A DNA stretch of 64,000 nucleotides from Escherichia coli (GCF_041886205.1 NZ_CP169029.1), one strand, 5' to 3'. Positions 17,167 to 33,081 are shown, counted from the stretch's first letter. A program made the numbers and translations. The notes: a model not told the origin generated them from the letters alone.

Positions 17167-17451
17167 CATGACTCCTTGCTCATCGCATGAAGACTCCGAG
17201 AGTGAACCCCGTTAGAAAGGGTCACACGCATGCCCCAATACAAAATTATTTGCTCGCCTCTATCGTTGCCATTTCATCTAAAGAGGAAAAGACAATGATA
17301 AAAAAGTTACAAATATGTTAATGAATAAACCAAATTGATCCCGTAATTATATTACGCCGCAAAATCCTTACAATAAACAGGTTTTTATTGAGCAAATTTG
17401 CATTTTTCGACAGTGATCAATTTATAGCGAAATTGTCACGACCTCACCAAT

Positions 17452-17517
17452 TTGATCTACGACAATTTATCGTGTTTTGCAGATTTATTTCAAGAATTAA
17501 AAATTGATTTATATCAA
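17452..17517. promoter_or_regulatory. cydA upstream regulatory region with FNR sites (perfect TTGAT-TTAT-ATCAA at 17504-17517; degenerate TTGATctacGACAA at 17452-17465)
   Basis: Perfect match to the FNR consensus TTGATnnnnATCAA about 340 bp upstream of cydA; cydAB is remembered as FNR/ArcA-regulated. Confidence 0.55.
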
Positions 17518-17971
17518 AATCAACCAAATATGTTAATAATGTATAAACCATAGATCATTGGTAATTTTATTGTTAATTTATTGTGAAATATTTATGCAAC
17601 ACAATAATTACAATGAAAAAGTATAGATAAAAAACCAGTGTTTTATTTAACAGAACCGCCCTATCCACTTTTTATAATACCAATTGATTAGAGTAGCCAA
17701 TTTGTTGCTATTTCACATAACATATTTTTATCAAAGTTAATTGATTGTTGCCTTTATGAGCACCGACCGTATGCCCGTTATGTTATTGTTTCATTAGTAA
17801 TAATCACTTAAATGTATCGATGAAACAGGTATGACTTAGCGGGAGTGATTGTTTCTGAGTGAACAGAGACCACTTTCGCCTGATAAATGAAAAATGAGCG
17901 ATTTTTGCAAGTTAGTTTTTCTATAGCCGAGTACGCTCAGCGCCTCGCTTGATTACAATGAGGTTGCTGCT

Positions 17972-18916
17972 ATGAGTCCTGATAATATCAGTTCTGCTGT
18001 CAATCGCTTCTCAGGTTGGCCATCTAATGATCCTCTAAAAACAGATAAAGAATCAATGACATCACCCGTGACTGTGCAGGTAATAAAGATGATTGCCGCC
18101 ATCCTTGACCCACATCGGATAGTCGTTGGAATTGATACACTTTATACAACGCAGCGCGAAACATTTACCTCAGAGAGTCAACAGCTCATTGAATCAGCAT
18201 TGCAAACACTTCATGTGATGAATTTAAATAACCTGGAAACAAATCGCGATGAAGAAGGTCACTATCTGGCTTTTGAATATAACCTTGACACCTCTGACAG
18301 AATAACCGTTTCTGCTTATAATGAAAAAAATCTTGGCTGCTATGGCCAATGTCTTTTAATACAGGATGACGAAACAGACTTATTCAACCTGATAAAAATT
18401 AAAATTTTTGAAGCCAGGCATAATTATGTCGCTCAATTGATGAGCGATCCGGAATTTATGTTCAAATTCAGTTATAGCGCTCAACAAAATAGATTAGAAC
18501 CTCATCTTCTGGTTCCCGCTTATTTTCCTCTAAAAACAAACGAACCGGTTACGCAAGAGGATGTACTGTTACTTTATCGTTTCTTTAAAATGAATGATGA
18601 TTTTAATAAATTAACATCAGATGAATACATGAGTATCATGACACCTCTGATGAAGTGTGAGCGTAGCGTCCACGACCACAACAGGTATGTGACGGGCAAA
18701 GATACCCTTCTCCTGGACTATCCTCCTTCTGGTAACCAGATACATTTCCATGTTTTCCCTGACGAATCAGCAACACTAGTCCTTTATTTTTCAAACAATG
18801 ACCTTGAATGTTTCGTCTTTGAAAAAGATATTCCGAGCCAGTATCGCTTTTTCAAAATGTTTACCAATCTGGCACTGGTTATAGATCAGTTAACCGAAGC
18901 CAATAAAATACTTTAA
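17972..18916 (+). CDS. hypothetical protein (no recognisable domain; AT-rich)
   Basis: 314 aa ORF with GAGG RBS 8 nt upstream; strongly AT-rich compared with flanking core genes; Ser/Pro/Asn-rich N-terminus; no TM segment or signal peptide. Confidence 0.6.
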   Translation: MSPDNISSAVNRFSGWPSNDPLKTDKESMTSPVTVQVIKMIAAILDPHRIVVGIDTLYTTQRETFTSESQQLIESALQTLHVMNLNNLETNRDEEGHYLAFEYNLDTSDRITVSAYNEKNLGCYGQCLLIQDDETDLFNLIKIKIFEARHNYVAQLMSDPEFMFKFSYSAQQNRLEPHLLVPAYFPLKTNEPVTQEDVLLLYRFFKMNDDFNKLTSDEYMSIMTPLMKCERSVHDHNRYVTGKDTLLLDYPPSGNQIHFHVFPDESATLVLYFSNNDLECFVFEKDIPSQYRFFKMFTNLALVIDQLTEANKIL

Positions 18917-18997
18917 TTTTCTATATATCCTCTGTGACAAATATTGCTTAACAATGCCCGGGGATTAATTTTTATTACTCACGGTAAGATTTAAATA

Positions 18998-19480
18998 ATG
19001 ATACCATCTCAGATCTCTTTCAATACTCTTCCTGTCAATGCAACATACGCTTCAGAGACAACAGTTGACACACAAAAATTCTCTGAAATCCTCTACTCAG
19101 CGGGGTGTTCCCTAAAGGATCTGGCTTATCTGAACAGATGTCTGGCATCATTACACCCAACTATCGCCAAAAACATTTATGAAACAGAAAATCTCAGCGA
19201 TCAAAAATTACTGCATATTGATTGCCGTAGTACAAATGAAATCAAGATAAATATCTTTTTTGGTCAGCAACGAGAAGGATTAATTGAAATTAGTTCTGAC
19301 ACAGTTATTTTTTCGATACTGTCTTCATTGATTGACTCCGCCATTTCTAAATTTCAACACCAAATCCCGTTAACGGTTCAGTTAATCCTGAACTATTGTA
19401 TGAGGATTATACTGATTAAATCCACCCTGTCGCGAAAAATGGCCTACGTTATTGCCAGACGTAATAAAACCTTTGATTAA
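18998..19480 (+). CDS. hypothetical protein (no recognisable domain; AT-rich)
   Basis: 160 aa ORF 81 bp downstream of the previous one, same strand, similar low GC; weak RBS; polar Ser/Thr-rich N-terminus. Confidence 0.5.
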   Translation: MIPSQISFNTLPVNATYASETTVDTQKFSEILYSAGCSLKDLAYLNRCLASLHPTIAKNIYETENLSDQKLLHIDCRSTNEIKINIFFGQQREGLIEISSDTVIFSILSSLIDSAISKFQHQIPLTVQLILNYCMRIILIKSTLSRKMAYVIARRNKTFD

Positions 19481-30949: not shown

Positions 30950-31539
30950 AATGCCTTCCGTGAAAAAAATAACAATTCAAAAATTATTTTATAAAAAACA
31001 GTAGCACTAATGAATATCATAATTCAAATAAACAAACCAGTCAGCTATATGTCCAACCAGAAAAATAAAGTGACAATAATCCTAAAACAGTAATTTCACC
31101 TCAGTTATCCACATGCAATACTTTAAAAATATTATTGCAAGAATATTATTCATATACATGAATATACTCTAAATAAGTCGAGTTGCAGGAAGGGAACAAA
31201 TAATGAATCTCCAGAAGATTACATAAGTAAGTGACCTGGGTGAGCGAACATCGATGCAGCACATGCAACTTGAATTATGACAAGTATACAATGATAAATT
31301 TAGATACCCTATGTTATATATTATCTATGTCCGGTTAAATTGAATGAGTCATGGCCTTAAAAGACTTCGCAAAAGATTATTTCTCTTTAACAATAAGCCA
31401 GATTTACCACTTGTAAAAATTGCTATCGCCACATACACTACGCGCGTTTTCTTTCCCTTTTGCTGGCTGCTGACCGGAAAGACAAAATTACCCTCGCAAT
31501 ACAGGGGGGTGTTTAACGTCTATATTTCAGGATAGCGTT

Positions 31540-32937
31540 ATGCATCATCTTTCAAGGTTTGATAAAGCCTTTCTGCGCAAAGGGATCCAACTTTCCCGCG
31601 CCAACAATATTGTTTCATTATCTCGTCCATCAGGTGCCAGTGCCCGCGTACTGTTGCCGGACGAACTGCCACTGGAAGAAAAAGCAGTGACACAACTGCT
31701 TGATTTTGCAGAAGTGAAGCTACCAGACCATCCAGGTTATGTACGCCAGACGTGCGCGACGCCAGATTTTCACCCCGGCAATGGCGTCCCCGTTGGCGCG
31801 GTGGTGGCCTCAACGCCGGATTTAGTCATTCCCGCCGCCATCGGCACCGATATTTCTTGCGGCATGCGGCTGCTAACGACTGGATTAACACTTGAACAAG
31901 CCGAAGCGCATAAAGACGTCATCACTCAGCGGTTAACGCAAGTGCTACTGCAAAATGAGCGCGATGTTCCGTTATCCGCACAGGCGTTCACCGCGCTTTT
32001 TGATGGCGGACCGGCAGATTGCGTGTCGACCTTGCCATCAGCAGGTCTCTGGACACGCATGAATATCCCCCGAATGGTACAAGAGATTGACCGCTGCATT
32101 GGGCTTAACGAGCATAACAGTCACTCGCGTTATGCCCCACCCGCCCTGCTGGCAACGGACCGCGCATTACTCCGCGACCCTTGTCTGGGTACGCCGGGTT
32201 CAGGTAATCATTTTATTGAACTTCAGGTAGTTGATAGCGTGATCGATCGCCATGTAGCCTGGCAACAAGGGCTGAAAACGGGCGATATCGTGGTGATGAT
32301 CCACAGTGGATCGCGAGATGTTGGCTTTTACGTCGGAAGACGCTGGATGGATCGCGCCCGTGCTGAATGGCCCATCGGACATAAACATCCACAAAGCGGG
32401 TTATATGGTCTGGCAGGCGGACTGGCGGAGGAATATCTACAAGCGATGGGAATGGCGGCGCGTTACGCATGGTTAAATCGCGTGACCATTGCGGAAATGG
32501 TTCGCGTATGTTTTGCCGATTTATTTCATCAGGATGATTCACATCTGGTGGTGGATGTGCCGCATAACATCATCCTTCGCGAACATGAAATGAATATTCA
32601 TCGCAAAGGTGCAACACCGGCACACGCGGGCGCTCTGGCATTAATCCCCGGTTCAATGGGCGATTATACGTGGCTTGCGGTAGGTTGCGGCAACCCGGAG
32701 TGGTTGTGGTCATGCAGTCACGGAGCAGGACGCAGCCAGCGTCGGCAGGCCATGCGCTCACGCGCGACTGAAGAGTCAACGCTGCCGTGGCAATGCGTCA
32801 CATTGCGTGAAGAACGACGTCTTGAAGAAGCGCCAGCTGCTTATAAAGATATTGCTCCGGTTATCGAAGCCCAACAAGAAGCTGGATTGATTCAGCCTGC
32901 GGTCAGATTTCGACCGTGGTTAACGTTTAAGGGGTAA
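31540..32937 (+). CDS. RtcB-family RNA ligase paralogue with ~55 aa N-terminal extension
   Basis: 465 aa; RtcB motifs DFHPGNG, IPAAIGTDISCGMR, GSGNHFIELQ, HSGSRDVG, IPGSMGDY, SCSHGAGR, AYKDI line up with remembered E. coli RtcB. Confidence 0.85.
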   Translation: MHHLSRFDKAFLRKGIQLSRANNIVSLSRPSGASARVLLPDELPLEEKAVTQLLDFAEVKLPDHPGYVRQTCATPDFHPGNGVPVGAVVASTPDLVIPAAIGTDISCGMRLLTTGLTLEQAEAHKDVITQRLTQVLLQNERDVPLSAQAFTALFDGGPADCVSTLPSAGLWTRMNIPRMVQEIDRCIGLNEHNSHSRYAPPALLATDRALLRDPCLGTPGSGNHFIELQVVDSVIDRHVAWQQGLKTGDIVVMIHSGSRDVGFYVGRRWMDRARAEWPIGHKHPQSGLYGLAGGLAEEYLQAMGMAARYAWLNRVTIAEMVRVCFADLFHQDDSHLVVDVPHNIILREHEMNIHRKGATPAHAGALALIPGSMGDYTWLAVGCGNPEWLWSCSHGAGRSQRRQAMRSRATEESTLPWQCVTLREERRLEEAPAAYKDIAPVIEAQQEAGLIQPAVRFRPWLTFKG

Positions 32938-33029
32938 CTGAAATGATAAATGGCCTGCGGTTCTCACGCAGGTCAAATCTGGTATCTGCGTAAGCTAACA
33001 AACTTGTTTATCAACAATTTCAGGCCATC

Positions 33030-33058
33030 CGAAGATGGCCTGAAATTATTGCCCCCCT
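33030..33058. terminator. hairpin downstream of mngB (ttcaggccatc-cgaa-gatggcctgaa)
   Basis: Perfect 11-bp stem directly after the mngB stop, flanked by A/T tracts; it also lies just past the right end of the insertion. Confidence 0.55.
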
Positions 33059-33081
33059 TAGATACACTTTTAGCGCAATAA

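Follow-up and report, generated by a model that had tools for sequence, protein, structure and literature searches.

The methylaspartate-pathway cluster between cydA and mngB of Escherichia coli is very probably an old resident of the sucD-cydA interval that K-12 has lost

The stretch of Escherichia coli DNA analyzed here (the window; 64,000 nt of GCF_041886205.1, NZ_CP169029.1) carries about 15.9 kb between the start of cydA and the stop of mngB, where K-12 has 846 bp. An earlier note, made from the sequence of the window, had read this difference as a horizontally acquired insertion into the K-12 gene order. We find that the block is the published enterobacterial methylaspartate-pathway cluster (Kronen & Berg 2015, PMC4682846) with two small add-ons, and that it is very probably an old resident of the sucD-cydA interval that was lost from K-12, not a mobile element. 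As judged from sequence comparisons, the evidence favors a derived state of K-12 at this locus and a cluster that has been lost more than once. In the history we propose, an Escherichia ancestor would have carried a longer version of the cluster that also held a hut operon and an rtcB gene. Cluster-bearing alleles would represent several stages of decay of this long form, an allele with a tetratricopeptide-repeat (TPR) gene would still hold fragments of hutU, and in the K-12 type a 470-bp stretch of other DNA, along with a strongly diverged region upstream of cydA, would have taken the place of the cluster and its spacer. Alleles would pass between lineages by homologous recombination in the flanks, with one crossover located about 75 nt upstream of the cydA start.

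Gene annotation was taken from the RefSeq record of strain wlxctx60, obtained from bear faeces, which is 100% identical to the window over 21 kb. When the window is aligned to K-12, positions 17543-33078 (15,536 bp) have no counterpart, while K-12 is alignable to 14500-17542 (cydB, cydA and the cydA upstream region) and to 33079-36500 (mngB and mngA). The annotation places 13 coding sequences between cydA and mngB, including one pseudogene with a frameshift. The alignment and the annotation thus bear out what the earlier note had described, i.e., some 15.9 kb with 13 extra genes that are absent from K-12, and the end of K-12 homology at 17542 falls inside its estimate of 17.52-17.97 kb for the left junction. 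Its AT-rich parts are also recovered in the GC profile, with values of 0.30-0.38 at 17.5-20.0 kb and 0.34-0.37 at 30.5-31.5 kb versus 0.50-0.56 in the core. Atypical composition is, however, confined to these two segments, and the cluster core (19.6-31.0 kb) has an E. coli-like GC content, so that the compositional signature of a mobile island does not extend over the whole element. As the earlier note had stated, no mobility signature is visible: there are no tRNA genes in window positions 16500-39000, no integrase, recombinase or transposase among the 13 annotated coding sequences, and no direct or inverted repeats of at least 10 bp common to the two border zones. The K-12 site, in turn, contains 470 bp of unrelated spacer including a repetitive extragenic palindromic (REP) element. 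This spacer matches REP copies elsewhere in the window and, weakly, the cydA-proximal intergenic region of Citrobacter.

The position of the cluster is shared widely. It lies between cydA and sucD in five genera: Escherichia (E. whittamii, Escherichia sp. E1V33 and ESNIH1), Salmonella (S. enterica subsp. arizonae and diarizonae), Citrobacter (C. amalonaticus, C. werkmanii, C. youngae, C. braakii, C. portucalensis and C. gillenii), Klebsiella (K. michiganensis, K. grimontii, K. oxytoca and K. spallanzanii) and Pseudescherichia (P. vulneris). In the other genera, cydA and glmS, the first gene of the cluster, are divergent direct neighbours 0.85-1.6 kb apart. Absence from the orthologous site of related species, as would mark a mobile island, is therefore not what these genomes present. 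Divergence at synonymous sites (dS, Nei-Gojobori, window versus each comparison genome) gives a similar picture. Within E. coli, dS is 0.02-0.09 in the cluster and 0.02-0.10 in cydAB/sucCD. Against E. whittamii, the cluster has 86-91% DNA identity (dS 0.43-0.89) and the flanks 96-97% (dS 0.11-0.17); against Salmonella, Citrobacter and Klebsiella, the values are 74-84% and 84-92% identity, and against Pseudescherichia 65-78% and 82-85%. Cluster and flanks rank the species in the same order, with Escherichia closest, followed by Citrobacter, Salmonella and Klebsiella, and then Pseudescherichia. The ratio of nonsynonymous to synonymous divergence (dN/dS) in the cluster is ~0.02-0.3 overall, with ~0.03-0.3 within E. 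coli and below 0.1 between genera.

A census of 5,426 complete E. coli genomes yielded three classes of alleles that add up to about the whole collection. The K-12-type spacer is the most frequent (3,182 genomes, 59%), and the TPR gene type, which includes sequence types ST95 and ST131, accounts for 1,113 genomes (20%). The cluster type is found in 1,138 genomes (21%) when scored by the AT-rich module of two hypothetical genes, hyp314 and hyp160, at its left end, and in 1,117 when at least 80% of the core is demanded. It comprises ~830 O157-like alleles, 144 long forms and ~142 window-like alleles (286 minus the long forms), and the cluster persists in these 21% of genomes at 95-99% identity. 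The block is accordingly accessory, as the earlier note had held.

To resolve the parts of the block, we built a module map from six other E. coli alleles and 80 loci of other species. The map shows that the block is not one insert but is made up of modules that differ in their distribution. In the long form, exemplified by IMT16316, homology to the window breaks at 30967 and restarts at 31432, and an intervening segment (its own 21966-30620) carries the hut genes. This 8.65-kb operon, present in 144 genomes between the LysR-type regulator gene and rtcB, contains hutU, a permease gene, hutD, hutI, hutG and a gene of the histidine ammonia-lyase (HAL) family. It physically links histidine utilization to the glutamate pathway. 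Fragments of the missing parts are recognizable in several shorter alleles. In O157:H7, the 449 bp right of the LysR gene (its own 24970-25415) are a decayed HAL fragment with 87.6% identity to the long form, followed by two rtcB fragments. In ST95, where the order is cydA, TPR gene, sucD, the ancestral spacer is kept to 17807, and fragments of the hutU 5' end and the hutU-rtcB spacer remain (its own 12115-12421). E. whittamii contains HAL, hutU and rtcB fragments and E1V33 HAL and rtcB fragments, with deletion end points that differ. From these remnants it follows that the hut- and rtcB-bearing long form already existed before these Escherichia species diverged. The clusters of E. whittamii and E1V33 also lack gltP and cobO and have kept glmSLE, mal, cmlAB, fumD and the LysR gene, which is independent partial decay in sister species.

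The mngRAB genes on the right are themselves a variable cassette (32933-38537), absent from O157:H7, IMT16316 and ST95. In IMT16316 and O157:H7, the end of rtcB (window 32932) directly meets window 38538, past the mngR stop and near sucD, and the junctions of the module show TAAG microhomology only. In C. sedlakii and C. amalonaticus S646, mngRAB is located between cydA and glmS, versus right of the cluster in the window. Over the terminal 200 bp of mngB, the alleles of the window, K-12 and strain 4/0 diverge from one another by 23-27%, a difference that fades with distance from the junction. Because mngRAB is a variable module that O157:H7 does not have, the view of the earlier note, a K-12 order plus an insert, is the wrong frame for this locus.

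The exchange of alleles has left an edge in the window. Up to 17240, i.e., ~75 nt upstream of the cydA start, the window is 100% identical to K-12; identity then drops abruptly to 75-85% (200-column windows), which marks this position as a putative homologous-recombination breakpoint at the allele edge. In the longer comparison, window 1-17240 mostly shows 0-1 mismatch to K-12 per 500 bp, with six at ~4.0-4.5 kb, and window 33.1-64 kb diverges by 1-2%. These profiles point to allele exchange by homologous recombination in flanking core genes, which would supply the mechanism that the earlier note could not see. The main exception in the left flank is the tRNA-Lys/tRNA-Val cluster (6500-8100, cpoB-nadA), whose arrangement or copy number is unlike that of K-12. 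On the right, window 50500-52500 and 53500-55000, in the region of the ybgD-ybgQ-ybgP-ybgO fimbrial operon, diverge from K-12 by 10-25% over the background of 1-2%.

The cydAB regulatory region of K-12 is the textbook model promoter for ArcA and FNR. For positions 17242-17542 (K-12 locus coordinates 2740-3040), we compared the alleles of the window, O157:H7, ST95, strain 4/0, E. whittamii and two other Escherichia lineages. The cluster-type and TPR-type alleles are 93-100% alike, whereas K-12 is 72-74% identical to these other Escherichia alleles and 66-75% identical to Salmonella, Citrobacter, Klebsiella and Pseudescherichia. The K-12 region thus appears as the outlier among the sampled Escherichia, and both an import from an unsampled enterobacterium and an ancient polymorphism fit this haplotype. 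A perfect FNR-type box, TTGATTTATATCAA, lies at 17504 and an imperfect one, read by eye from the sequence, at ~17455; FNR boxes are kept in both the window and the K-12 alleles (by eye except for the box at 17504). The earlier note had proposed that the native cydA promoter is retained. This is correct for the FNR boxes, but the regulatory region from 17241 onward is a different allele, with 73-77% identity to that of K-12 and 93-99% identity to the other Escherichia alleles. Beyond it, the intergenic region up to 17812 is 89% identical to that of E. whittamii and is common to two TPR-type alleles up to 17807.

Several observations weigh against the view of an old resident lost from K-12. The outgroup loci were gathered by the presence of Mal, and Escherichia species lacking the cluster (E. 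albertii, E. fergusonii and E. marmotae) were left out. No cluster remnant is recognizable in the 470 bp of K-12, and the loss is therefore deduced from outgroups and not from a scar. Between species, the cluster dS is 3-4 times that of cydAB/sucCD; this may reflect the strong codon bias of the highly expressed flanks, next to which the cluster genes would be weakly expressed. The conserved position could also arise by interspecies exchange of the whole interval via its conserved flanks. Finally, PMC4682846 reports no methylaspartase activity and no glutamate growth benefit in O157:H7 ATCC 700728, where neither expression nor growth on glutamate could be demonstrated, so that a function in E. 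coli is a prediction.

With these points in mind, we weighed other histories of the locus. That the K-12-like cydA-mngB junction is ancestral and the 15.5 kb arrived recently, in one insertion, from another organism would agree with the absence of the block from K-12 and 79% of complete E. coli genomes, with the two AT-rich segments that flank the core, and with the hyp314/hyp160 module, which is Escherichia-only and looks later added. We regard this as very improbable, since the core GC is E. coli-like, the position is the same in five genera, within-species dS equals that of the flanks, cluster-less alleles retain fragments of the long form, the modules differ in distribution, and integrase, tRNA and repeats are missing. 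The K-12 site, moreover, is not an empty one, holding 470 bp of different DNA next to a cydA upstream allele of 73% identity. A second scenario takes sucD-cydA to be a recombination hotspot that received the cluster independently in different genera, either by insertion or by a swap via the conserved flanks, so that a shared position would not imply shared ancestry. The placement of mngRAB on opposite sides of the cluster in the window and in C. sedlakii and C. amalonaticus S646, the gain and loss of the hut, rtcB and TPR modules, the allele exchange via flanks in the window itself, and the excess of between-species cluster dS over flank dS all speak for it. It is nevertheless unlikely, because cluster divergence ranks the species exactly as cydA and sucD do, neither the regulatory block near glmS nor the orientation relative to cydA varies between the loci, and site-specific machinery is absent. 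The horizontal insertion favored by the earlier note is, by the same native core GC, the shared site in at least five genera, the flank-matching dS within E. coli and the long-form remnants in other alleles, mostly not supported. The alternative it had itself named, that the block is ancestral and was deleted in K-12, largely agrees with our results, with deletion or replacement as the event. Its interpretation is, overall, partly supported.

A different question is whether the cluster of the window strain is a silent, decaying relic without a current physiological role. The negative activity and growth data for O157:H7 ATCC 700728 in PMC4682846 would be explained in this way, as would the frequency of decay (hut/rtcB loss in O157:H7, a deletion in strain JNE23-011, the missing gltP and cobO in E. 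whittamii and E1V33, and the hyp160 frameshift), and AT-rich DNA beside the operon could attract H-NS silencing. Yet the window has intact copies of all eleven genes for the pathway and its regulator, dN/dS stays at ~0.03-0.3 within E. coli and below 0.1 between genera, a block upstream of glmS is invariant across genera, and the cluster persists in a fifth of genomes, 21%, with 95-99% identity. We consider the relic improbable, if a little less so than the independent insertions, and note that purifying selection argues for cluster function only indirectly. Returning to the old resident lost from K-12, a bolder version, which we offer tentatively and hold somewhat more doubtful than not, is an Escherichia ancestor with a ~24-kb sucD-cydA supercluster that comprised hut, the LysR-type regulator and a complete methylaspartate pathway and would have converted histidine via glutamate into pyruvate and acetate. 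All present-day E. coli alleles would accordingly have arisen by decay or replacement of this supercluster, with the K-12-type allele a foreign or very ancient haplotype. If true, the allele of 59% of genomes removed a pathway and swapped the cydAB regulatory region for one that is ~73% identical to those of all other sampled Escherichia, about the same distance as to Salmonella or Klebsiella.

We next turn to the content of the cluster (Table 1). GlmS, GlmL, GlmE, Mal, FumD and CobO were assigned by curated NCBIfam equivalogs that score above cutoff. Both subunits of the B12-dependent glutamate mutase, GlmS and GlmE, are encoded, as is methylaspartase, and a mesaconase gene is clustered with glm and mal. 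The FumD protein of an O157:H7 strain was characterized biochemically as a mesaconase/fumarase according to PMC4682846, and fumD of the window has 98.7% DNA identity to that of O157:H7. That paper left open what the DUF1446 gene does and what becomes of (S)-citramalate, as no citramalate lyase had been found. Because the AtuA/DUF4387 pair follows mal even in distant phyla, it was suspected to be the missing lyase. The AtuA-annotated protein matches, over nearly its full length and at ~92% identity, the chain of PDB entries 9ERQ/9EVF that is named 'Citramalate lyase, subunit A (cmlA)', and residues 1-104 of the DUF4387 protein match the chain of 9ERQ named 'Citramalate lyase, subunit B (cmlB)' with an E-value of 5e-57. 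A 2026 preprint used cmlAB of Raoultella planticola (a gift of I. Berg), which cleaves citramalate directly to pyruvate and acetate. Among 80 glm-mal loci, 67 have cmlA only and 6 have citE/F only, with none having both and 7 having neither within 10 kb; since many of these loci come from related enterobacteria, the counts do not represent independent events. The matches support AtuA/DUF4387 as the missing citramalate lyase, but the identification was already known through the names of the PDB entries. A literature search for DUF1446/DUF4387 or a primary CmlAB paper turned up only Kronen & Berg and the preprint that used the enzyme.

With the citramalate cleavage step assigned to CmlAB by sequence match, the cluster is predicted to encode a complete route from uptake through citramalate lyase. 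The GltP/DctA-like symporter, named GltP in Fig. 5 of PMC4682846, is presumed to serve in glutamate uptake and would import the substrate. GlmS and GlmE would turn glutamate into 3-methylaspartate, with GlmL keeping the mutase active and CobO supplying adenosylcobalamin (AdoCbl). Mal would then convert 3-methylaspartate to mesaconate, FumD would hydrate mesaconate to (S)-citramalate, and CmlAB would split the latter into pyruvate and acetate. The LysR-type protein presumably controls the operon, and its gene adjoins the cluster in every Enterobacteriaceae locus examined. While the gene identities are established, in vivo activity in the window strain is what we infer from them. On contigs of metagenome-assembled genomes labelled 'Collinsella sp.' and 'Citrobacter sp.', the encoded proteins share 98-100% identity with their counterparts from the E. 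coli pathway, and the 'Citrobacter sp.' contig additionally has hyp314 and hyp160 at 93% and 81% identity; these contigs are probably mis-binned E. coli DNA. In JNE23-011, the deletion removed window 22310-31152, from mid-glmE to upstream of rtcB.

Table 1. Features of the block and its left border in window coordinates; NCBIfam scores are given with their curated cutoffs.
Feature	Position	Strand	Remarks
cydA upstream regulatory region, non-K-12 allele	17241..17542	-	FNR boxes at ~17455 and 17504
Continuation of the ancestral cydA-glmS intergenic region	17543..17812	.	missing in K-12
AT-rich two-gene module	17813..19560	+	hyp314 17972-18916; hyp160 18998-19480, frameshifted in the window strain
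Pathway operon and LysR-type regulator	19561-30967		
Conserved block TTTTGAAAATAGATCAATTGC, candidate operator of the glm operon	19833..19853	+	~113 nt upstream of glmS ATG
glmS, B12-binding small subunit of glutamate (methylaspartate) mutase	19967..20416	+	NF002612/TIGR01501; NF002612 253 bits vs cutoff 110
glmL, glutamate mutase accessory/reactivating protein	20416..21804	+	NF040745, 510.5 bits vs cutoff 475
glmE, glutamate mutase catalytic subunit	21823..23268	+	TIGR01503, 863 bits vs cutoff 390
mal, 3-methylaspartate ammonia-lyase	23268..24509	+	TIGR01502, 542 bits vs cutoff 286
cmlA, putative citramalate lyase subunit A (annotated AtuA/DUF1446)	24513..25883	+	PDB 9ERQ/9EVF chain A
cmlB, putative citramalate lyase subunit B (annotated DUF4387)	25880..26197	+	PDB 9ERQ chain B
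Dicarboxylate/amino acid:cation symporter, GltP/DctA-like	26358..27638	+	NCBIfam DctA 312 bits, GltP 302 bits, both below cutoffs
fumD, class I fumarase acting as mesaconase	27746..29398	+	NF011921, 1279 bits vs cutoff 1060
cobO/cobA-type ATP:cob(I)alamin adenosyltransferase, makes the AdoCbl cofactor	29408..30010	+	TIGR00708, 247 bits vs cutoff 168
GC-rich hairpin between the convergent cobO and LysR genes	30014..30040	.	11-pair stem, 9 G-C
LysR-type regulator, GcvA-like	30044..30949	-	NCBIfam GcvA subfamily, 220 bits, below cutoff
AT-rich 464-bp filler	30968..31431	.	at the position of the 8.65-kb hut operon in the long form
rtcB-like gene segment	31432-32932		
Lone RtcB-family RNA-ligase-like gene (465 aa)	31540..32937	+	Pfam RtcB residues 63-465, E = 5.8e-95
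146-bp rtcB-mngB spacer	32933..33078	.	left end of the mngRAB module (32933-38537)

Candidate control elements were found on both sides of the operon. In the conserved block upstream of glmS, TTTTGAAAATAGATCAATTGC, 18 of 21 positions are invariant across nine sequences that represent seven genera, within a spacer that is otherwise barely alignable. The block holds a TTGA-N7-TCAA dyad and a T-N11-A core, which fits a candidate site for a LysR-type regulator or a factor of the CRP/FNR family. The hairpin between cobO and the LysR gene is the strongest terminator-like site in the scan and likely acts as a bidirectional terminator. An Rfam scan of 17000-33300 (E <= 1) returned no cobalamin riboswitch and no other RNA element. 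As hits in a scan with the sigma-70 consensus were no more numerous than in shuffled sequence, we do not claim promoters.

The two add-ons lie at either end of the pathway genes. The hyp314/hyp160 module, with its two genes without known relatives, is confined to E. coli and one sister clade, and the cydA-glmS spacers (1.2-1.4 kb) of E. whittamii and the other genera are without it, so the module does look like a later addition. Neither protein matched Pfam, NCBIfam, PADLOC or PHROG, and hyp314 is found in only 5 database protein clusters (65-96% identity), the sole named one being E. coli. Its dN/dS is 0.5-0.6, compared with 0.13-0.21 for hyp160. It might be speculated that an AT-rich module beside the glm promoter contributes to silencing. 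In Escherichia sp. MOD1-EC7003, hyp314 is interrupted by stop codons, and strain XJ5.2 has an insertion sequence, IS1, within the module. At the other end, the RtcB-like protein does not reach the curated NCBIfam cutoff of either known bacterial RtcB type, and its gene is present in only 289-300 of the 5,426 genomes. About 60 residues precede the RtcB domain, and no rtcA, rtcR or prfH partner is located nearby. A defence-system or prophage origin of hyp314, hyp160 and RtcB was considered and rejected, as PADLOC gave no match and PHROGs only the generic RtcB family. In strain NT1F25, mngB next to this segment is split by IS1.

These results change how the locus is best regarded. If K-12 is derived here, its lack of a gene block is a poor proxy for horizontal acquisition of that block in other strains. 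The cydAB promoter studied in K-12 is not the version found in ~40% of E. coli, which could matter for generalizing respiratory regulation. With AtuA/DUF4387 matching citramalate lyase, the question shifts from the missing enzyme to when the operon switches on.

The cluster itself was already known and published. Like the window, the O157:H7 cluster of Kronen & Berg contains, according to PMC4682846, glmS, glmL, glmE, mal, the DUF1446 gene, a small open reading frame, gltP, fumD, cobA/cobO and the LysR gene in the same order, and its DNA is 98.6-98.8% identical to that of the window. The prevalence of 21% found here is close to the 26.5% given there. The window differs from O157:H7 in its intact rtcB-like gene and adjoining mngRAB, where the latter strain retains HAL and rtcB fragments only and has no mngRAB. 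We found no O-island number or Z-gene names for the block in a paper on RpoS in EDL933. Beyond the portions of PMC4682846 drawn on here, which do not discuss chromosomal position and allele history, our analysis adds these two aspects in the form of a derived K-12 state and a distinct cydAB promoter allele, as well as a pathway that is complete on the level of predicted enzymes.

As far as citramalate, the chemistry is that of the clostridial cluster of Clostridium tetanomorphum and C. tetani (mutS/glmS-mutL-mutE-mal-mesAB-citDEF), with a B12-dependent mutase, a reactivase, methylaspartase and an Fe-S mesaconase that together take glutamate to pyruvate and acetate overall. The mesaconase of the window is the single-chain, FumA-like FumD versus the two-subunit MesAB of clostridia, and citramalate cleavage is assigned to CmlAB versus a CitDEF-type lyase with CitCXG activation genes. 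Unlike its clostridial counterpart, the window cluster has a transporter, an adenosyltransferase and a LysR-type regulator built in. The linkage to hut in some E. coli matches the route from histidine via glutamate that is reported for gut Firmicutes. The methylaspartate cycle of haloarchaea also uses glutamate mutase and methylaspartase to reach mesaconate, but activates it to mesaconyl-CoA for acetate assimilation; in the window, mesaconase and citramalate lyase come after mesaconate, and the route is thus taken to be catabolic. Like integrase-borne islands and O-islands, the block is strain-variable, absent from K-12 and partly AT-rich at its edges. Unlike tRNA-linked, repeat-flanked islands, it lacks an integrase, a tRNA target and border repeats, has a core of native GC content and keeps its position across genera, and it would spread by homologous recombination between its flanks.

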